Part shown: positions 2,598-11,024 of the stretch, piece after piece
Layout: each line of letters opens with the position of its first letter
Position numbering within the stretch: position 1 is the first letter of the stretch
Source of the DNA: an uncultured delta proteobacterium
GTDB taxonomy: Bacteria > Desulfobacterota > Binatia > Binatales > Binataceae
DNA: 64,000 nt
Assembly (NCBI GenBank): GCA_963835905.1
Contig: CAWIHG010000005.1
Location: 1,396,018 to 1,460,017, forward strand
Reading direction: 5' to 3'
The notes under the pieces: generated by a model
The model's input: only the letters and a program-made list of their open reading frames with translations
Told to the model about the DNA's origin: nothing
The model's database searches: none
Program-made: the position numbers and the translations under genes

Positions 2598-2663
2598 GCG
2601 CGGACGCCCGCTGGGTCCGCCAGCCCTGACTTTTCCCTTCGACACCTCGCAGGAGCAAATTCC

Positions 2664-2706
2664 GTCATCCTGAGCGTAGCGAGTCTGCGAGCGGAGTCGA
2701 AGGATC
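2664..2706. repeat. Short repeat-like element gtcatcctgagcg...cgaaggatc (reads VILS..KDL)
   Basis: Resembles a short interspersed repeat family that produces spurious small ORFs in many high-GC genomes. Only one copy is seen in this window, so this rests on recollection. Confidence 0.25.
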
Positions 2707-2831
2707 TCGCGCGGCAATTCTCCGCCGCGCCAAGTGCCGGCGCCGGATGCGCTGCGCATCTGGTGAGATCCTTCGCCTCACGGGCTCGGTTCAGGATGAC
2801 CTCAGTTTAGGCGAGGAATCGGGGAGCGTCG

Positions 2832-3071
2832 CTACACGGCGCGGCGGAACAGATGCGTAACGCCGACCAGCGCGAGCGCTCCGACCGTCGCCATGGCGAG
2901 ATACCCGGTCCTTCCTAACGCGACGATTCCCAGCGCGGAGAAAATCCACCGGCCGATCACGGCGCCGATAAGTCCCAGCAGGATGTCGACGAAAATCCCG
3001 TAGCCGCTCCCGCGCATGAGCATCCCGGCCAGCCATCCCGCGACCAGGCCGATTATCAGCGTGCCGATCAT
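2832..3071 (-). CDS. GlsB/YeaQ/YmgE family stress-response membrane protein
   Basis: 79 aa, two TM helices, MIGTLIIGLVAGWLAGMLMRGSGYGIFVDILLGLIGAVIGRWIF is typical of this transglycosylase-associated family. Confidence 0.75.
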   Translation of the reverse strand: MIGTLIIGLVAGWLAGMLMRGSGYGIFVDILLGLIGAVIGRWIFSALGIVALGRTGYLAMATVGALALVGVTHLFRRAV

Positions 3072-3101
3072 CGGGCGCTTCTCACGCTCGAGGCGCGCGG
3101 G

Positions 3102-3221
3102 CTACTTTTTCTGCTCCATCGGAGCGCCGCAGCACTTGAGCGAGCCGCTGCCGCCCTTGGTGACGATCACCTGGGATCCGCATTTTCCGCAGATATAAAC
3201 CTTACCAAGCTGATTGGCCAT
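3102..3221 (-). CDS. Desulforedoxin-like small Fe(Cys)4 protein (39 aa, not in the ORF track)
   Basis: Reverse-strand translation MANQLGKVYICGKCGSQVIVTKGGSGSLKCCGAPMEQKK aligns residue-by-residue with Desulfovibrio gigas desulforedoxin ([36 protein letters not shown]), including the CxxC...CC motif. Confidence 0.7.
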   Translation of the reverse strand: MANQLGKVYICGKCGSQVIVTKGGSGSLKCCGAPMEQKK

Positions 3222-3254
3222 TTCCCGGTCCTGTTCCTCTCAAGTTCAATTGCG

Positions 3255-3935
3255 CTACGCGCCGCGAAACAGCGGCTTGCGCTTGTCCAGAAACGCGCGC
3301 ACGCCCTCGGCGCGATCGGCAGTCGTTTGTAGCAGGGCGTACAGATCTTCCTCAAGCCTGATGCCCTGGTCCAGAGCCATGTCGTAGCCCTTGAGCACGG
3401 CGTCCTTGACCAGCCGGGCCGCCAGCGGCCCGCGCGACAGGATCGCCTCTGAGACCTCGGCGCCGCGGCTGGCAAGCTCGCGCGCATCGCGTGCCAGGTA
3501 GGTCACCAGCCCGATTCGCATCGCCTCGGCGCCGTCGATTGCGCCGCCGCCCAGCAGCATCCGCATCGCATGGCCGATCCCGACCAGGCGCGGGAGCCGC
3601 TGGGTTGCGCCAAACCGCGGCATCGCGCCGCGCCGCAATCGGGTGAACGCAAAGCGCGCGCGCGCGGATGCGATCCTGATATCCGCGGCCATCGCCAGCT
3701 CCAATCCCTCATCGATCGCGTCGCCGTTGACGATCGCGAGCGTCGGCTTGGAGACGACAGCCAGTGTCTCGACCACGCGCGGATCGACGTCGGCGCTGAA
3801 GCCGCGGCAGAAGTCCGCGCCGGTGCCGGTAATCGCGAGCATCCGGATTTCGTCGTCGTCCTCGACGCGCTCGCACAGCTCGATCAATTCTACCACGGCG
3901 TGCGCGTCGAGCGGTCCGCCGCGCCCCGCCGGCAC
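3255..3935 (-). CDS. Enoyl-CoA hydratase/isomerase (crotonase) family protein, N-terminus unresolved
   Basis: Crotonase motifs ITGTGADFCRGFS and TLAIVNGDAIDEGLELAMAADIRIA. The only start found is GTG at 3935, which omits the first beta-strand. Homology continues upstream to the TGA at 4032-4034. Confidence 0.7.
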   Translation of the reverse strand: MPAGRGGPLDAHAVVELIELCERVEDDDEIRMLAITGTGADFCRGFSADVDPRVVETLAVVSKPTLAIVNGDAIDEGLELAMAADIRIASARARFAFTRLRRGAMPRFGATQRLPRLVGIGHAMRMLLGGGAIDGAEAMRIGLVTYLARDARELASRGAEVSEAILSRGPLAARLVKDAVLKGYDMALDQGIRLEEDLYALLQTTADRAEGVRAFLDKRKPLFRGA

Positions 3936-4031
3936 CAGCCTCGCGGTGAGGCATCCGGCCGCCTGCGTCAGTTCGAGCGCGCCACGGGCGGCCGGCCGGG
4001 TCGAGGCGGATTTGCGCGGGCGCGGCGTCGC

Positions 4032-5576
4032 TCAAGCTCCCGAGGATGCCCGCAGGTCCTTGCGCAGGATCTTGCCGAGCGGATTTTTGGGCAGAGCGTC
4101 GATAAACTCGATTTTCTCGGGGCGCTTGAAGCTCGCCAGGCGCGAGCGGCAGAAATCCGCCAAGTCGGCCTCGCTGACATTGGTACCCGCGCGCCTGACG
4201 ACGAACGCCTTGACCGTCTGCCCCCATTCCTCGGAGGGAATTCCGATCACCGCGGTCTCATCGACCTCCGGATGGCTCATCAGTACGGTTTCGATTTCGG
4301 CGGGCGCGATATTCTCGCCGCCGCGGATGATCATGTCGTCCTTGCGCCCGGCGAAGAATACGTAGCCTTCGTGATCGACCCAGCCGAGGTCGCCCGTCGC
4401 GCGCCATCCGTCGGGCAGCGCGGAGTCGTCGGTGCGGCCGGCGTAGCCCTTCATGATACGCGGGGTGCGGATGATAATCTCGCCGACCTGGCCGTCGGGG
4501 AGGAGATTGCCGTCGTCGTCGCGCACTTTTATTTCCACGTCGGGCAGCGGCTTGCCGATCGAGTTGAGCCGCTTGAGCTTGAGCTCGACTTCCTCGGTGG
4601 TGCCCTCGATACGATGGTCGTCGGGGCCGAGGATCGTCAGCGAGGAAGTGGTCTCGGTCTGCCCGTAGGCGTTCACGAAGCCCACGGTTTTGGGAAACAT
4701 CTCGATCGCGCGGCGGATGACCTGGATCGGCATCGGCGCGCCGCCGTACGCGAGGTTGGTCAGGCTGGAGAGGTCGGCGCTGGCGAAGTCGGGCTCGTCG
4801 ATAACCTGCTTCATCATCGTGGGCACGACGAAGGCATGGGTGATGCGCTCGGACTGGACCAGTTGGAGCCACTGTTTGGCGTCGAACTGCGGCATCACGA
4901 TTACGCGCCGCCCGGTCCAGATGTTGGTCATGTACGCGGTGGTTCCCGCGATATGGTAAAACGGCACGCAGACCAGCGCGGCGCCGCGATCGGTGCCGTC
5001 GGCCATCTCCACGTTCGCCGTCACATAGGCGGTGAAATCGCGGAACGAGAGCATGACGCCCTTGGGCAGCGAGGTCGTGCCGCTGGTGTACATCAGGATC
5101 GAAGTGTCCTCGTCCTCCACCTCGGCCTCGGTTTCATCGGGTTCGACGCGGTTGGCAAGGCCCAGCAGCCGCTGCGTTCCCGACTGACCGTCGCCCAACG
5201 CGACGATTTTGCTGGGTTTGAGCTTGGCGCGGATTCGGCCGACCAGGTCCAGGTAGCGATCGCCGACCAGCAGGACCTTGGCGTCGGCGGTATTGATCAT
5301 GTACTCGAGCTCGGCTTCCTTGGCGCGATAGTTGAGCGGCAGAAAAGTGAGTCCGGCCTTGGCCGCCGCGTAGTAGCTCGCGATGTATAAATCGGAGTTG
5401 GTGTCGAGCACCGCGAGGACGTCGCGATGGCGCAGGCCAAGCTGCTTGAAGACGGCGCAGAAGCGGGAAACCTGATCGGCAAACTGCGCGTATGTCAGGC
5501 GCCTGCCACCGAACACCAGAATTTCCTGGTCGGGCACGATCGAAGACGGGATCGTGACGAAATTGACGGTATTCAC
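4032..5576 (-). CDS. Acyl-CoA synthetase / AMP-dependent ligase (FadD-like)
   Basis: 514 aa. AMP-binding motif YTSGTTSLPKGVML, and the C-terminal GKILRKDLR found in ANL-superfamily enzymes. Confidence 0.85.
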   Translation of the reverse strand: MNTVNFVTIPSSIVPDQEILVFGGRRLTYAQFADQVSRFCAVFKQLGLRHRDVLAVLDTNSDLYIASYYAAAKAGLTFLPLNYRAKEAELEYMINTADAKVLLVGDRYLDLVGRIRAKLKPSKIVALGDGQSGTQRLLGLANRVEPDETEAEVEDEDTSILMYTSGTTSLPKGVMLSFRDFTAYVTANVEMADGTDRGAALVCVPFYHIAGTTAYMTNIWTGRRVIVMPQFDAKQWLQLVQSERITHAFVVPTMMKQVIDEPDFASADLSSLTNLAYGGAPMPIQVIRRAIEMFPKTVGFVNAYGQTETTSSLTILGPDDHRIEGTTEEVELKLKRLNSIGKPLPDVEIKVRDDDGNLLPDGQVGEIIIRTPRIMKGYAGRTDDSALPDGWRATGDLGWVDHEGYVFFAGRKDDMIIRGGENIAPAEIETVLMSHPEVDETAVIGIPSEEWGQTVKAFVVRRAGTNVSEADLADFCRSRLASFKRPEKIEFIDALPKNPLGKILRKDLRASSGA

Positions 5577-5585
5577 GGACCGCGT

Positions 5586-6392
5586 TTACCTCCTGGATGC
5601 TGCCGCGCGATGGCGGACGCGGCGTCCGGCGCCCGTGGCGCGGACCGTTTTCGGACCGCCGCAAAGGAGCGCAAAACGCCGCGCAAGTCTCCGTTCGAGA
5701 CCGAGCCCCTCCGCCAGCGGCAGGTCCACTCCACCCCACACCGCGAGCTTGACCAGAGCGGACTGCTCGCGCGGGAGGCGGCCGAGCTCGCGCGCGATCT
5801 CCAGCGCGCGCCGCTCGAGGCCGGCCCGCGGGACGACTTCGGCGACCAAACCTACAAGTAACGCGTCGTGCGCGTCAATCCAACGTCCGGTGATGCACAA
5901 ATCCAGCGCTCGGCCCAGGCCGAGCCGGCGCGAGGCGGTCTGGGTGCCGGCCACTCCGGGGATCATACCGGTCCCGGTCTCGGGAAGGCTGAGCCGGGTA
6001 TCGTCGGCGGCAATCGCGACGTCGCACAGCAGCGCCATCTCGAGTCCCCCGCCGACTGTAAAGCCGTGAATCGCAGCGACCGTGGGAATCGGCAGCGCCT
6101 TTAGCCGGCCCCACACATCGCGCCGGAACCGGACCCATCGCGCGACTATCGGAGAGGGCGCCGAGCCGAATTCGTGCAGATCGCCCCCGGTAGAGAACGC
6201 CTTGCCCGCGCCGCAGAGGACCATCGCGCGAACCTCGGGGTCCTCATGAACCGCGCTCAGGATCGCGAATAGATCGTCGCGCATCGCGACGTTGTAGGCA
6301 TTTAGCTGGTCGGGTCGGTTGAGCGTCACCCAGGCGACCGCCCCGCGTTTGCGGTAGATGACCGCGCCGTCAGCGTTGGCCGAGGTTGTCAT
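5586..6392 (-). CDS. Enoyl-CoA hydratase
   Basis: True start is MTTSANADGAVIYRKRGAVAWVTLNRPDQLNAYN, inside listed ORF 5586..6929. Crotonase fold. ATGA overlap with the upstream amidohydrolase stop. Confidence 0.8.
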   Translation of the reverse strand: MTTSANADGAVIYRKRGAVAWVTLNRPDQLNAYNVAMRDDLFAILSAVHEDPEVRAMVLCGAGKAFSTGGDLHEFGSAPSPIVARWVRFRRDVWGRLKALPIPTVAAIHGFTVGGGLEMALLCDVAIAADDTRLSLPETGTGMIPGVAGTQTASRRLGLGRALDLCITGRWIDAHDALLVGLVAEVVPRAGLERRALEIARELGRLPREQSALVKLAVWGGVDLPLAEGLGLERRLARRFALLCGGPKTVRATGAGRRVRHRAAASRR

Positions 6393-7945
6393 GCGGAATG
6401 CAGGTCGGCGCTGTCGCTCCACGCGATCGCGGGGCGTCCGCGCTCGTACACGACCTTGCCGTCGATAATCGTGATATCCACGGCCAGCGCGGCAAGCTCG
6501 GCCGGCTCCAGCCCGGACAGATCGCGCGGGAGCACGACCAGGTCCGCGAGCATCTCGGGTTCGATCGCGCCGGCCTCGATCCGCGCCAGCCGCGCGCCAT
6601 CGCGCGTGAACATCGCGAGCGCATCGGCGGGCGCAAGCTGCTCGTCGGGCGCGAGCGTGTCGCCGTCGATCGTCTCGCGCGAGATGGCGGCCGCGATCGC
6701 GGCGAGCGGGCGCGCCGGCGTGACCGGCGCATCGGTCGCTCCGGCCAGCTCGATTCCCGCCGCGCGCAGGCTGCGCGCGCGATACAGGTAGGGCAGCAGG
6801 CCGGGCTCGCGCGCGTACTTGGGACCCCGAAAATGTACGAAGCCCGGATTGGTCACCACCCACGCGCCCATCGCCGCCAGTCGCTCGAGGTGCTCGGGCG
6901 TGATGACGCCGCCGTGCTCGATTCTGCACACCGCCGGCGTGCCGCGCTCGCCAATCTGGCGCATCGCGAGTTCGATCGCGCCCAGCGCTTCATCGAGTTC
7001 CTCGACCTCGGTTGCGTGGAACGCGCAATCAAGCCCGCTGGAGAGCCCGATTCGCACCCGCCGCGCCAGCGTCGAGTCCCCCGCCGCGGCGCCGGGCATG
7101 AACTTGAGGCCCGCCAGCCGCACGCGGTCGCCCGCGAATTTGGCGGCGGCGCCCGCGGCGTCGAGGTGATGCGCGCCGATCATGACGCCGACCCGCTGGC
7201 AAATCGATCTGGCAGCCGATAGCCGCGCGAACAGCTCCACCTCCTCGGCGCCGTTGCGCACGGTCGCATCGGTGAAGGCGGTGACGCCCGCGGCGGCAAG
7301 CTCGCGGCTCATGATTCGCGCGCGCGATTCCGTCTCGGCCTTGGTGACGAGTGGAAGCCTGGCGGTGATCTCCTGCTCCATTGCGGCGACCAGCCCGCTG
7401 AGTTTGCCCGCGCCGTCGTGCTCGACGGTCGCGCCGGCGGGCGGGCGGAAGCCGGGTTCTTCAAACCCGCACAGTTTGATCGCGCGCGAGTTCAGCCACG
7501 AGGCGTGGAGCGTCTGATGGCGCAGGCGCAGCGGGTTCTTCGGGACCGCCTGGTCGAGTTCCTCGCGGGTCGGCCCGCGCCCCTCGGCCAGCAGCGCCTC
7601 GTCGCATCCGAACGCGCGCAGCCAGTTGCCGGGCGGGGTCTTGCCGGCGGCCAGACGGAGGTCGGCCAGCAGATCCGCTAGCGAGCGGCATCGCGAGACG
7701 TTCAGCCCGGTGGCCGCGGCGGCGCTTTCAAAAAAATGGAGATGCGAATCGATAAATCCCGGCGCGACGGTGCGGCCAGAGAGTTTGACCAGATGGGTCC
7801 GCGGTCCGACCAGCGCCTTGAGCTCGGTGAACGGGCCGTGCGCGATAATCCTGCCGCCGGTTATCGCGACCGAATCGCTTCCGGGATGACCGTGAACGGC
7901 TCCCTCGTGGAGAACGAGGTCGGCCTTGGCGGACGGGTTTGCCAC
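6389..7945 (-). CDS. Amidohydrolase-family metal-dependent hydrolase
   Basis: Motifs GFIDSHLHF and HATEVEE are typical of the amidohydrolase superfamily. Start assigned to GTG at 7945 (VANPSAKADLVLHEGAV); the longer listed ORF extension looks spurious. Confidence 0.7.
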   Translation of the reverse strand: MANPSAKADLVLHEGAVHGHPGSDSVAITGGRIIAHGPFTELKALVGPRTHLVKLSGRTVAPGFIDSHLHFFESAAAATGLNVSRCRSLADLLADLRLAAGKTPPGNWLRAFGCDEALLAEGRGPTREELDQAVPKNPLRLRHQTLHASWLNSRAIKLCGFEEPGFRPPAGATVEHDGAGKLSGLVAAMEQEITARLPLVTKAETESRARIMSRELAAAGVTAFTDATVRNGAEEVELFARLSAARSICQRVGVMIGAHHLDAAGAAAKFAGDRVRLAGLKFMPGAAAGDSTLARRVRIGLSSGLDCAFHATEVEELDEALGAIELAMRQIGERGTPAVCRIEHGGVITPEHLERLAAMGAWVVTNPGFVHFRGPKYAREPGLLPYLYRARSLRAAGIELAGATDAPVTPARPLAAIAAAISRETIDGDTLAPDEQLAPADALAMFTRDGARLARIEAGAIEPEMLADLVVLPRDLSGLEPAELAALAVDITIIDGKVVYERGRPAIAWSDSADLHSA

Positions 7946-7998
7946 TATTTGGAACCGGTGCCGCGCGCCGCCGAACTCAGCTGGCGCGCGCTCACGGG

Positions 7999-8142
7999 TC
8001 AGTCGGAGGACGGCAGCGGCTTGGCCTCCTTGATCTTCATCTCGCCTTCGCAGCACTCGATCGAGCCGGTACCGGCCTTGTTGCACAGCACCTCGGTGCC
8101 GCACTTTTCGCATTGATAGCGTTTGCCCAGAGTGTTTGCCAT
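7999..8142 (-). CDS. Desulforedoxin-like small Fe(Cys)4 protein, second copy (47 aa, not in the ORF track)
   Basis: Translation MANTLGKRYQCEKCGTEVLCNKAGTGSIECCEGEMKIKEAKPLPSSD has the same CxxC...CC pattern as the 3102..3221 gene. Confidence 0.65.
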   Translation of the reverse strand: MANTLGKRYQCEKCGTEVLCNKAGTGSIECCEGEMKIKEAKPLPSSD

Positions 8143-8217
8143 TTTGATTTCTCCCCTGTCATGGTCCGCACGGACGGCTTTCGCCGCCGGAGCGGAAATA
8201 ATATATCGCTCAAAACC

Positions 8218-9231
8218 CTACTTGAAGGGTAGCTCTTCCACCCACGCGTCGATCGCGCCCGCCGGGTCCGCGATCGTGACGCGGGTGCCCGCCGCCCATG
8301 CGCTATGATGAACAGTCGCAAGCGCGATTCCACCCATCCGCGGCGAATTCGCGATACTGGTCGCGCGGCCGACTTCCTTGTCCGCCAGCATCACCGCGGC
8401 TGCGCGCGCCGGCATCCGCGCCGCATCGAACCTGAGACCCATCAGGTGGCGCTTGAGCGCACCGCGCGCGGTTGCGCGCTCGATCGTCTCCTGCCCGACA
8501 TAGCATCCCTTGCTGAACGAAATTGCGCGCTCCATGCGCGCCTCCAGCGCGATTGTCTTGTCGCCGGTATCGACGCCCACCAACGCGAGCCCGCGCTCGA
8601 TTCGAATGGCGTCGAGCGCCGCGGCGCCGACCCGGCGGAACGCCGGGTCGGAGGCGAGAATCCGGCCAATGGCGGATTCAAGTTCTCCGCGCGTACCGAT
8701 CATCGAAAATGCGGGCCCGCCGAGCCGCGGAAGATTCGCAACCATCAGCGAGCCCGCGCGGACGAACCGCCACTGGGCGATGGTGGCGGGCGCGTCGCCC
8801 ATTGCGGCAGTAATCGCGTCCGCCGCGCGCGGCCCTTCAATATCCACGACCGCGAGATCGGAATCGGTCTCGAACTCGACGTCATCAGCGACCAGCAGGC
8901 GTTCCAGATGCTCGCGCGCGCGCCGCCACAGGGTCGTATCGGCGTCGATCAGTACCGCATCGGGCGCAACCCACATGAAGCAGTCCGCGATCACGTGCGC
9001 ATGCTCGGTCAGGAACATCGCGGGCACCACCGCGCCTGGCGCGGCGCCCTTGACGTCGTTGCTGCACATCCCGTGGAGAAACGACACCCGGTCCTCGCCT
9101 ACGACGCGGACGACGCACCGGCCGGGAAGCTCGAGCACGCCGGCCGCATCGGTAATGGCGGCGTAATCGGCGCCAAAATTCGGCGAGCCTGCGGCCGCAG
9201 CCGAAGCATCAATCTGTTGAGAATCTTCCAT
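8218..9231 (-). CDS. Folate-binding protein YgfZ / aminomethyltransferase-fold (GcvT-like)
   Basis: GcvT/YgfZ-type signature. Start taken at MEDSQQ (9231); an alternative ATG lies at 9267. Confidence 0.65.
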   Translation of the reverse strand: MEDSQQIDASAAAAGSPNFGADYAAITDAAGVLELPGRCVVRVVGEDRVSFLHGMCSNDVKGAAPGAVVPAMFLTEHAHVIADCFMWVAPDAVLIDADTTLWRRAREHLERLLVADDVEFETDSDLAVVDIEGPRAADAITAAMGDAPATIAQWRFVRAGSLMVANLPRLGGPAFSMIGTRGELESAIGRILASDPAFRRVGAAALDAIRIERGLALVGVDTGDKTIALEARMERAISFSKGCYVGQETIERATARGALKRHLMGLRFDAARMPARAAAVMLADKEVGRATSIANSPRMGGIALATVHHSAWAAGTRVTIADPAGAIDAWVEELPFK

Positions 9232-9434
9232 TACGTGACAGGAAAAAAATGGGCCTACGGTGGGCATTTTACCAGCAGATCGGCCCTCGCCGCCACATCC
9301 CGTCTGCCCGATCGGCACCGCGAGGGCCTCCCCGGACTCGCGCAGAGCTTGAAACTTCTCAAAAGAAGGGTACAAAGAATTCGGTTCTGTTAAGAGGGGT
9401 ATCTGACGTATAATCGACCTCAAAGGAGCCAAGG

Positions 9435-9572
9435 ATGGGCGCGTTTCTCCTTGGATTGATTATCGGCGCTGGCGGAGCATTCCTGCTCTTCACCCTTGAC
9501 GAGGGCGAGGTGTTCCTGAAGATCGCCCGCCAGATCAAGCAGACCGCCGACAAGTTCAAGCAGTCGTCCTGA
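9435..9572 (+). CDS. Small membrane protein (45 aa)
   Basis: Strong RBS aaggag precedes ATG. MGAFLLGLIIGAGGAFLLFTLDEGEVFLKIARQIKQTADKFKQSS has a single TM helix. The stop lies 4 nt before the start of the downstream secreted protein. Confidence 0.45.
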   Translation: MGAFLLGLIIGAGGAFLLFTLDEGEVFLKIARQIKQTADKFKQSS

Positions 9573-9575
9573 GCG

Positions 9576-11024
9576 ATGGGCACGAACGGAAACCTCGGCG
9601 GCTCAGGCGCCGCACGCGCCTGGGTGCGAGCGTGCCGGTTAGCAGCGCGCGCCGCGGCGGTCTGCGTTGCGGCGCTGACGATGGTTGTACTGGTCCGAAC
9701 GGCGGCGCGGGCCGACAGCCCGCAGACCGTCGCGAGCGAACTAAGCGACCGCGCGTTCTCGATGCTCAATTCCATCAATGCGGCCCCCGCGGACACCGGT
9801 CCCCTGCTCGGCCCGGTGGCAAATCTCGCCAGCGACGCGCAGACGCTCAGCGCGGCGCTGGGTCGCGGCGACAGCGTAACCGCCGGGCGAGCGATGGCGG
9901 CGGTCCAGAAGGATCGAGGCGCCGTCGAGACGATGCTGCGCGCGGGAAACCATCTGCCCGATGCCGGGCAATGGAAGCTTATCGAGGGTCAGATCGCCGC
10001 GCTCGCCCGCAGCGTCCATCCGATCGCGGGGGCGATTGCGACCGGAGTGCCGCCCGAATCGACCGCTGCCAGCGCGGCCAAGTTTCCGCCCGAAGCGCCA
10101 CCGGCTCCGCAGGTGGTGATCGAGTCGCGCGCTTTCAGCGACGGCGCGGTCCGGGTGCGCGGATACATGCAGGGGACCGATCTCAAGTCGGCGGGAATTT
10201 TCAACAACGATCAGCTCGTCAAGCCGCTCGAATTCGGCAGCGCGAGCGGACCCGAACGCGTGCGCTTCGATCTCTCGATCGAAGCTCCGACCGCCAGCCA
10301 GTCCATCCAGGTGACCGACGCGCTCGACCGCATCGGGCGCGCGCCGGTTGCGCCCGACGTTGCGGCGCTGCCGAACACCCGCAGCGGCGGAGAGAAAGTG
10401 ATCGAGCTGGGCGGAGGAGTCGCCTCTGATTCGGTCGCGTCAGCGGGGCCGGGACTGCCGCCCGCGATGCCGGAAACCCGCAACAACACCGTCGAAATTC
10501 CGCCCGCCAATACCCTGGACAAATCCGAGGGCGGAACCGGACGCCGTCTTCCCGGCGGCGCGGGAGGCAACCTGACCGGCGTCCAGATCAACGTGATCTT
10601 CGCCGACGAGGTGATGGATCAGCCGGGCAACTTCCAGGTCGTAGGGCAGATTTCAGGCGGGGGCGTGCACCGGGCCGGGGTCTATGTTGACGGCCGGATG
10701 GTGCGGCCAATCCCGATCAGCCCCGGAAGCTACAGCGCCTTCGACGTGACCTTTCCGCTGATCGCGGGCAAAGAGGCCACCATTCGCGCATACGGGGTGG
10801 GCAGCAACTACGTGGAAGCATCGGTCGATAGCTCGGACATGGGAGCAACGGTCATGCGCGGTCCCACGATGTATCCGCCCAGTCCTTATCCCTACGGTAG
10901 TCCGTACGCGATGCGGCCAAATCCGTATGGCGCCCCGCCGCCGTATGGCTACGGATATCCGCCGCCCTACGGATATCCGCGGCCCGCGGCGCCCGCGCCG
11001 TGGTATCGCCGTCTGTTCCCGTAA
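9576..11024 (+). CDS. Secreted hypothetical protein with C-terminal Pro/Tyr/Gly-rich low-complexity tail
   Basis: N-terminal hydrophobic signal-like segment; C-terminus PYPYGSPYAMRPNPYGAPPPYGYGYPPPYGYPRPAAPAPWY. No recognised catalytic motif. Confidence 0.55.
   Translation: MGTNGNLGGSGAARAWVRACRLAARAAAVCVAALTMVVLVRTAARADSPQTVASELSDRAFSMLNSINAAPADTGPLLGPVANLASDAQTLSAALGRGDSVTAGRAMAAVQKDRGAVETMLRAGNHLPDAGQWKLIEGQIAALARSVHPIAGAIATGVPPESTAASAAKFPPEAPPAPQVVIESRAFSDGAVRVRGYMQGTDLKSAGIFNNDQLVKPLEFGSASGPERVRFDLSIEAPTASQSIQVTDALDRIGRAPVAPDVAALPNTRSGGEKVIELGGGVASDSVASAGPGLPPAMPETRNNTVEIPPANTLDKSEGGTGRRLPGGAGGNLTGVQINVIFADEVMDQPGNFQVVGQISGGGVHRAGVYVDGRMVRPIPISPGSYSAFDVTFPLIAGKEATIRAYGVGSNYVEASVDSSDMGATVMRGPTMYPPSPYPYGSPYAMRPNPYGAPPPYGYGYPPPYGYPRPAAPAPWYRRLFP

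Follow-up and report, generated by a model that had tools for sequence, protein, structure and literature searches.

What would two genes of fewer than 50 codons, each carrying the cysteine signature of desulforedoxin (Dx), be doing on either side of a cassette of genes for acyl-coenzyme A (CoA) metabolism? The question is raised by a stretch of 64,000 nucleotides (nt) from a soil bacterium, an uncultured delta proteobacterium of the family Binataceae (assembly GCA_963835905.1, contig CAWIHG010000005.1, positions 1,396,018 to 1,460,017), here called the window and numbered from its first letter, the minus strand of which carries the two mini-genes Dx1 and Dx2. As set out below, both are almost certainly real genes for metal-binding proteins of the desulforedoxin fold, and they lead to a very large relative of desulforedoxin, i.e. 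a two-gene or fused unit of a type A and a type B protein that has invariant features of its own.

An initial annotation, made from the letters of the window alone, had described two minus-strand open reading frames (ORFs) of 39 and 47 amino acids (aa), and both are present where it had placed them (table 1). The CxxC...CC motif it had seen in each turned out to have the exact spacing CxxC-x15-CC in both, with C11, C14, C30 and C31 as the cysteine ligands of Dx1 as well as Dx2 and exactly 15 residues between the pairs, CXXCX15CC being the defining signature of the Dx domain (PMC3116461). When all six frames of the 64 kb were scanned for C..C.{10,20}CC, three matches were obtained, two of which are Dx1 and Dx2. 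Dx1 matches the Pfam family PF06397 (Desulfoferrod_N) with 35.8 bits (E 6e-9), i.e. above the gathering score of 23. By sequence, the nearest relatives in the PDB are the desulforedoxin of D. gigas and the N-terminal domains of desulfoferrodoxins (Dfx), the top match of Dx1 being the desulforedoxin entry 1cfw. In a three-way alignment of Dx1, Dx2 and D. gigas Dx, either mini-protein shares 43% of its residues with Dx (the values for Dx2 being 51/43%), and the initial description of Dx1 as aligning with it 'almost residue-for-residue' was thus overstated.

ORFs as short as these might have arisen by chance, or the conserved stretch might be an RNA or regulatory element, and a mechanical 5' extension of the neighbouring amidohydrolase ORF does overlap Dx2. 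Comparison with orthologues speaks strongly against such an origin. The orthologue set consisted of the best 80 loci of 384 matched species (one genome per GTDB species), all of them from Binataceae or from metagenome-assembled genomes (MAGs) labelled 'delta-proteobacterium'. Within this set, Dx2 orthologues are 81-94% identical to the window protein at 80 loci and Dx1 orthologues 72-97% identical, the latter being found in 66-69 of 72 Binataceae loci; all four cysteines of each protein are invariant (68 Dx1 and 80 Dx2 orthologues), start and stop codons are conserved, and in other species a GGAG/AGGA motif precedes the ATG of either gene at an equal distance. With medians of 90% and 87%, the identity of the mini-proteins exceeds that of every flanking enzyme in the Binataceae loci (53-79%). 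At the codon level, pairwise dN/dS is 0.075 for Dx1 (67 orthologues) and 0.073 for Dx2 (79 orthologues) at a dS of about 1.0-1.5, and third codon positions are variable in 37 of the 39 codons of Dx1 and 45 of the 47 codons of Dx2, as against only 11-18 variable first and second positions. Taken together, orthologues in 80 Binataceae loci, a dN/dS of about 0.07 and varying third positions are far beyond chance; in addition, there are thousands of homologues at the protein level, and no Rfam family covers Dx1 or Dx2. A chance or RNA origin therefore retains virtually no probability. The initial annotation had proposed to look for conservation and synteny in related genomes, and both were found: the mini-genes are conserved in about 80 Binataceae species, the gene order from YgfZ to Dx1 is kept in 69 of the 72 loci that reach far enough downstream, and the genes have Shine-Dalgarno sites as well as orthologues.

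Both genes had also been called unannotated, which is correct for an ORF track with a 60-aa cut-off, from which they are missing, and incorrect for public MAG annotations, which already call both, mostly as 'hypothetical protein' and in some cases as 'Desulfoferrodoxin, N-terminal domain'. Dx1 and Dx2 are a clean case of conserved genes of fewer than 50 codons concealed by length cut-offs. In some long-read 'MFD' MAGs (loci L038 and L068, also L002, L027 and L042), genes including Dx1 appear fragmented in tblastn, which looks like the result of indel errors in sequencing and not like pseudogene formation.

The A/B family and its predicted fold

A profile of both proteins retrieved hundreds of near-identical 47-aa proteins labelled Candidatus Binataceae, and a full hidden Markov model search of 1.84 billion cluster representatives gave at least 1,000 clusters (50% identity) at E<=1e-3 and 183 at E<=1e-10. 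With a type-B profile, 3,312 clusters at 90% identity were obtained, the sources being Chloroflexota, Dehalococcoidia, Acidimicrobiia, Syntrophales, WOR-3 and 'Deltaproteobacteria' and the source annotations 'desulfoferrodoxin', 'desulforedoxin' or 'hypothetical'. Type A, which includes Dx1 and in effect also classical Dx, has 39-40 aa and reads MANQ.GKRY.C.KCG.E.IVT+.G.G.L.CCGQPME.KK, and type B, which includes Dx2, has about 47 aa and reads ..LGKRY.C..CG.EVL.TK.G.G...C[C/H]...M....[KR].[LI]PS[SA]D-COOH; the hallmarks of the two types are the endings ...PMEQKK on Dx1 and ...KPLPSSD on Dx2. Invariant in 125 type-B sequences are G6, R8, C11, C14, L19, G24, G26, C30, P44 and the C-terminal D47. 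The fifth cysteine of Dx2 (in VLCNK) was considered as a metal ligand and rejected, since its position holds C, V and I in 84, 34 and 6 of these sequences, respectively, and thus cannot be a universal ligand.

Types A and B are regularly encoded side by side. Of 76 metagenome loci that extend far enough upstream, 74 have a type-A ORF ahead of type B on the same strand, the gap between them being 30 nt in the median, and the two exceptions are Binatia-like loci with YgfZ before B. The order seen in the window, with B first and a split of 5 kb, is therefore a derived state, and it was found only in Binataceae-like lineages. Moreover, many proteins of 80-120 aa, occurring in several lineages, are A-linker-B fusions. 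Where the initial annotation had seen two paralogous carriers, Dx1 and Dx2 rather represent the A and the B half of an ancient unit that consists of two genes or, at times, of a single fused one, and as partners in such a unit A and B most likely work together. Text searches of an open-access paper library (for desulforedoxin-like proteins, for PF06397, and for Binatota combined with desulforedoxin or superoxide reductase (SOR)) yielded no description of the A/B unit.

Two variants of the family stand out. Fusions from Chloroflexi (loci L081-L084, L089 and L090; proteins P0270-P0280 and others) keep the A signature GKRF.C...MVTKAG.GDLSC despite two lost cysteines, a loss that parallels the Cys-less Dx-like domain of the Treponema pallidum SOR (1y07, among the fold matches). 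Some type-B proteins (P0217-P0219, P0225, P0227 and P0230) are extended at the N-terminus by a further domain of about 60 aa with the pattern ...KE.ALE.L..RP.GF...G......L..E.E.G...G, for which no Pfam match was obtained, the Dx part being the only one that matches.

The desulforedoxin fold is predicted from models of Dx2 and of a natural A-B fusion (P0287, 83 aa). The AlphaFold2 model of Dx2, built with 125 homologues, has a predicted local distance difference test score (pLDDT) of 76.7, with 79-89 in the core and 57 in the tail. When this model was compared with the PDB by Foldseek, the six best matches were all Dx or Dfx N-domains at a probability of 1.00 (including 2ji1, 2ji2, 1vzg and 1dfx), and its root-mean-square deviation (rmsd) from 1dxg_A is 1.1 Å over 33 columns, with a template modelling (TM) score of 0.79 by target. 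The P0287 fusion (pLDDT 84.8, predicted TM score (pTM) 0.72) is modelled as a single compact body rather than as two beads, and one of its domains matches all 36 residues of 1dxg_A with a TM score of 0.91 and an rmsd of 0.8 Å. The evidence for packing of A against B consists of the pTM of this fusion and of the single-chain matches.

Gene contexts in Binataceae and beyond

The minus strand of the window reads, in order of transcription, YgfZ, Dx2, Amidohydro_3, ECHb, acyl-CoA ligase, ECHa, Dx1 and Transgly_assoc. Domain searches confirmed these neighbours and, with them, the string from a YgfZ-like to a GlsB gene with acyl-CoA enzymes that the initial annotation had recognized, and the spacing of the string is operon-like (table 1). 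The reference of that annotation to an 'apparently aerobic-type genome' likewise agrees with the Binataceae/Binatota lineage, since Binatota are described as respiring aerobically and degrading fatty acids extensively (PMC8262859).

Table 1. Genes, start signals and intergenic distances of the minus-strand string, in order of transcription (positions in the window)
Feature	Position	Strand	Remarks
YgfZ/CAF17-like folate-binding protein	8218..9267	-	GCV_T + GCV_T_C; start uncertain, ORF extends to 9432
YgfZ-Dx2 intergenic region	8143..8217	-	AT-rich promoter/operator-like motif, then GC-rich hairpin
Shine-Dalgarno GGGGAG of Dx2	8151..8156	-	8 nt before Dx2 ATG; from sequence
Dx2, type-B desulforedoxin-like mini-gene	7999..8142	-	47 aa, CxxC-x15-CC + tail KEAKPLPSSD; sequence MANTLGKRYQCEKCGTEVLCNKAGTGSIECCEGEMKIKEAKPLPSSD
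Dx2 stop to amidohydrolase GTG			spacing 53 nt
Amidohydro_3 metal-dependent hydrolase	6389..7945	-	PF07969, E 8e-68; likely GTG start 7945
Amidohydrolase stop / ECHb start			overlap as ATGA
Crotonase ECHb	5586..6392	-	PF00378 (ECH_1), E 9e-49
ECHb stop to ligase start			spacing 9 nt
AMP-forming acyl-CoA ligase	4032..5576	-	PF00501 + PF13193; FadD13 / feruloyl-CoA-synthetase-like
Crotonase ECHa	3255..3935	-	PF00378 (ECH_1), E 3e-37; N-terminally short ORF
ECHa stop to Dx1 ATG			spacing 33 nt
Shine-Dalgarno-like AGAGGAA of Dx1	3234..3240	-	~12 nt before Dx1 ATG; from sequence
Dx1, type-A desulforedoxin-like mini-gene	3102..3221	-	39 aa, CxxC-x15-CC, C-terminal ...PMEQKK; sequence MANQLGKVYICGKCGSQVIVTKGGSGSLKCCGAPMEQKK
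Dx1 stop to GlsB ATG			spacing 30 nt
Transgly_assoc (GlsB/YmgE-type) small membrane protein	2832..3071	-	PF04226

The string is made of two modules, since three loci (L010, L031 and L034) have YgfZ, Dx2 and the amidohydrolase without the block of ECHb, ligase, ECHa and Dx1, and the GlsB/YmgE-type gene, the position of which varies among the other Binataceae loci, belongs to the unit only loosely. The Amidohydro_3 hydrolase is present in all 72 of 72 Binataceae loci; its relatives in the PDB are uncharacterised only. Searches of the PDB and NCBIfam with the ligase, the amidohydrolase and the crotonases gave generic assignments only, and the likeness of the ligase to FadD13 and feruloyl-CoA synthetases is to be read as generic, too.

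Some of the gene starts in the string call for comment. The ORF list over-extends the amidohydrolase (6389-8113, 574 aa) and ECHb (5586-6929, 447 aa) in the upstream direction, and it is this over-extension that produces the apparent overlap of the amidohydrolase with Dx2; alignments of orthologues place the true starts near GTG 7945 and ATG 6392, respectively. ECHa has 226 aa, and its match to Pfam ECH_1 begins only at profile position 21. The 96 nt from the ligase stop to the GTG of ECHa are open in frame and crotonase-like, yet contain no ATG, GTG or TTG (window 3255-4031, minus strand); the 5' region of ECHa may have a non-canonical start or encode a degenerate N-terminus.

Between YgfZ and Dx2, some 60 nt before the ATG of Dx2, 34 of 79 Binataceae loci carry an AT-rich palindrome, TT[GA]AAG-N5-CTTTAA; shuffled controls gave no instance of it. 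The copy in the window is degenerate (ttgagcgatatattattt), and a few of the matches overlap the YgfZ stop codon (PFK-stop). The palindrome is followed by a GC-rich hairpin that varies between species, and from their sequence the two elements resemble an operator, or an extended -10 promoter, with a hairpin in the 5' untranslated region. A sigma-70 promoter scan of 2600-9700 gave no site, and terminator-like matches were no more frequent than in shuffled sequence. A sub-threshold Rfam match to the archaeal HgcF snoRNA at 8370-8488 (minus strand, E 0.007), which lies within the coding sequence of YgfZ, was dismissed as chance, given 25.7 bits against a gathering score of 70. Upstream of YgfZ and divergent from it is an ORF of 482 aa (9576-11024, plus strand) with a Pro/Tyr/Gly-rich tail (...PYPYGSPYAMRPNPYGAPPPYGYGYPPPYGYPRP...).

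Further contexts of the A/B pair were found outside Binataceae. In Syntrophales the order is ECH, ECH, CoA ligase, A, B and CoA-transferase III, and the enzymes are 46% (ECHa), 49% (ECHb) and 48-49% (ligase) identical to those of the window. In Acidimicrobiia a putative remnant of A is followed by B and a CoA ligase that is 38% identical to the window ligase. A large group of sediment contigs has CoA-transferase III, ECH, ECH, Amidohydro_2, the A and B subunits of CoA-transferase I, then A, B and CoA-transferase III, followed on the opposite strand by an Amidohydro_3 that is 29-33% identical to the window amidohydrolase, and a further group has A, B, CoA-transferase III and Amidohydro_3, then a ligase on the opposite strand. 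Thus, the four enzyme families of the window recur with the A/B pair across phyla, in differing arrangements. Counted over B clusters at 85% identity, a same-strand CoA-family gene at a distance of up to 3 kb occurs in 7 of the 18 informative ones, to which Binataceae would add one. There are also contexts of a housekeeping kind, namely CarB, PyrK, YjbQ, A and B, then FolE on the opposite strand, or A-B (or a fusion) beside GNAT, LexA, RelA and HisS. On balance, we consider it fairly probable that A/B is functionally tied to acyl-CoA metabolism.

At some loci of anaerobes, genes for an HGD-type dehydratase, SDR and thiolase are found nearby, though not consistently. In one sediment lineage (loci L151, L152, L154 and L164), A-B stands beside two HGD-D genes, a MarR regulator and CoA-transferase I subunits; HGD-D is 2-hydroxyacyl-CoA dehydratase / benzoyl-CoA-reductase-like, and this is the only context seen with low-potential-electron enzymes.

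Possible roles of the pair

With some reserve, we lean towards a composite reading in which Dx1 and Dx2 constitute a heterodimeric metal module of the desulforedoxin fold that is accessory to acyl-CoA metabolism. The two genes would encode the two differing halves, A and B, of one mini-protein pair, with each half binding one metal through CxxC-x15-CC, by homology as a rubredoxin-type Fe(Cys)4 site, although zinc would also be possible. A and B would then most probably form a heterodimer that corresponds to the homodimer of D. gigas desulforedoxin, and the flexible but invariant tail of B (...P-S-S-D-COOH) would be free for docking onto a partner. The adjacent A-B pair of the ancestral state has been split in Binataceae and now brackets the cassette of amidohydrolase, crotonase, CoA ligase and crotonase, and its putative accessory role in the bracketed acyl-CoA pathway could consist either in the delivery of single electrons or in that of a metal-stabilized adaptor.

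Several findings weigh against this heterodimeric accessory module. Dx2 reaches 20.9 bits (E 3e-4) with PF06397, so that the profile search suggested in the initial annotation bore out Dx1 and left Dx2 just under the gathering score, 2.1 bits short of 23, and both proteins miss the NCBIfam TIGR00319 cut-off of 36.05 (Dx1 30.4, Dx2 15.9). The heterodimer has gene fusion, adjacency and one pTM value as its basis. In 11 of 18 family lineages A-B stands beside unrelated housekeeping genes (CarB, PyrK, YjbQ, FolE, LexA, RelA), which makes the CoA link recurrent rather than universal, and this link could in part reflect the abundance of CoA genes in these genomes. Furthermore, no oxidoreductase is among the products of the Binataceae operon: apart from the mini-proteins, the YgfZ-like protein and the membrane protein, they comprise the hydrolase, the CoA ligase and the two crotonases. 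An electron acceptor is thus not apparent there, and the earlier suggestion of electrons being supplied to a partner in the operon lacks a visible candidate. Finally, ligand position 31 of type B holds Cys in 70 of the 125 sequences, His in 54 of them and Asp in a further lineage, and in the Chloroflexi fusions the A domain retains only two of its four cysteines; such switching in B and such losses in A argue against a strictly conserved Fe redox centre and suit a structural metal at least as well as a redox-active one.

In part, these are also the arguments for a structural alternative, in which zinc in a Cys4 (or Cys3His/Asp) site would have no redox function and the A/B dimer would scaffold or regulate an acyl-CoA enzyme, much as do the DUF35 zinc-ribbon subunits of thiolase complexes or the MbtH-like partners of adenylating enzymes. 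A fourth ligand toggling between C, H and D is what is typically seen where Zn is bound, the A domain of Chloroflexi fusions persists with its incomplete set of cysteines, the most conserved residues (GKR, P44 and D47) lie outside the metal site, the neighbouring enzymes in the window are all non-redox, and family members show weak Pfam matches to zinc-ribbon families. Yet in their CC-type motif and in fold the proteins agree with desulforedoxin, an Fe protein, and not with a CxxC...CxxC zinc ribbon, all eight cysteines are invariant in Binataceae, the partnership with an enzyme is read from gene context, and CoA neighbours are absent in many lineages. As judged from sequence, then, iron would be favoured by homology to Dx and by the invariant Cys4 sites in Binataceae, whereas zinc without redox function would be favoured by the variation at ligand 31, the lost ligands of A, the conserved non-ligand residues and an operon that lacks an oxidoreductase; the purely structural adaptor seems to us a possible but doubtful alternative as a whole. 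Far less probable is oxidative-stress defence as in desulfoferrodoxin, which the initial annotation had also proposed and in which the Dx proteins would feed a separate neelaredoxin-type SOR, i.e. form a split desulfoferrodoxin. Both proteins are indeed homologous to the N-terminal domain of desulfoferrodoxin, and a stress-associated GlsB/YmgE-type gene adjoins Dx1, but the position of this gene is not conserved, and neither the window nor any of the 176 family loci (2.18 Mb) gave a match at E<=1e-3 when searched by tblastn for an SOR catalytic domain (PF01880), with those of three Dfx as queries. An approximate P. furiosus SOR query and the motif C[NS].HG.W found nothing meaningful in the window, and no Binataceae-labelled Dfx was within the best 120 matches. 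The lone hybrid of a Binataceae-like type-B N-terminus and an SOR (P0192, from the ENA) was discarded: it is a singleton on a contig of 576 bp and, from residue 31 onwards, is 100% identical to P0378, an ordinary Geobacter-type Dfx, which makes it almost certainly an assembly chimera that arose at a shared CCGQEMK stretch.

Just as improbable is a function in iron or Fe-S handling together with the YgfZ/CAF17-like protein, with Dx2 and Dx1 as iron or electron donor for Fe-S repair. YgfZ does immediately precede Dx2 in 76 of 77 Binataceae loci, as it does in the two Binatia-like metagenome loci, and the protein in the window lies well above the TIGR03317 cut-off (75.6 versus 49) and has the family motif KGCYxGQE as SKGCYVGQE. 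This adjacency is limited to Binatia-like lineages, however, and was not seen in other lineages of the family, and the conserved promoter/operator-like motif and the hairpin that stand between YgfZ and Dx2 suggest separate transcription. A more speculative idea, to which we give little credence, is that the A/B pair might be not an electron carrier at all but a protein-borne handle for acyl or amino-acyl chemistry, with the invariant and flexible PSSD end of B as the point of covalent attachment or docking; in analogy to the zinc-ribbon carrier LysW with its ligase and hydrolase, the AMP-forming ligase or the CoA transferases would load B and the amidohydrolase would unload it, with the metal heterodimer serving only as the scaffold.

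Comparison with known systems

Desulforedoxin has been a textbook model of bioinorganic chemistry for decades and is regarded as a curiosity of sulfate reducers; to our knowledge, its physiological role has never been settled. If the link between A/B and acyl-CoA metabolism holds, the question of what desulforedoxin is for gains a genetic context in which it can be tested, and an accessory component would have been flagged for a widespread and uncharacterised pathway of CoA ligase or transferase, crotonase and amidohydrolase.

Among small metalloproteins with which A/B may be compared, the rubredoxins that partner enzymes (e.g. those associated with AlkB) are similar in being small Cys4 proteins encoded in catabolic operons, but their motif (CxxC...CxxC) and fold differ from those of Dx1 and Dx2, and their redox partner is obvious, whereas there is none in the Dx operon. 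DUF35 subunits of thiolase complexes and the carrier LysW are, like A/B, small Cys4 metal-knuckle proteins from metabolic operons, and LysW has, as has type B, a conserved acidic C-terminal tail, which in LysW is the functional end. Neither, however, is related to A/B in sequence or fold; LysW systems require the ATP-grasp ligase LysX, which is absent here, and DUF35 proteins have about 130 aa and an OB fold.

Closer in kind is the N-terminal domain (centre I) of desulfoferrodoxin or 2Fe-SOR, a homologous domain with a Cys4 site that is among the top PDB fold matches of Dx2. In contrast to desulfoferrodoxin, A/B has no PF01880 domain fused to it or in its neighbourhood (window and 176 loci), and its context is acyl-CoA metabolism and not oxygen defence.

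The closest known system is D. gigas desulforedoxin itself (1DXG/1CFW, PF06397). It is of the same size class (36 aa versus 39 and 47 aa here), has the identical CxxC-x15-CC spacing and, as far as the models go, the same fold (0.8-1.1 Å rmsd), and it is a stand-alone mini-protein, the end of which coincides with the C-terminus of Dx1 (type A). Unlike desulforedoxin, which is a homodimer of the product of one gene of about 36 aa, the present system has two co-inherited chains, A and B, or A-B fusions; B has an invariant C-terminal tail of 11 residues (...LPSSD) that Dx does not have; GK[RV]Y precedes the first cysteine in both A and B and is absent in Dx; and the hosts are aerobic Binataceae and many phyla that do not reduce sulfate. 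Thus, by motif and fold the A/B proteins are members of the Dx/Desulfoferrod_N superfamily, and what is new relative to Dx is the heteromeric two-gene or fused unit, the tail of B, GK[RV]Y, the taxonomic range and the genomic context.

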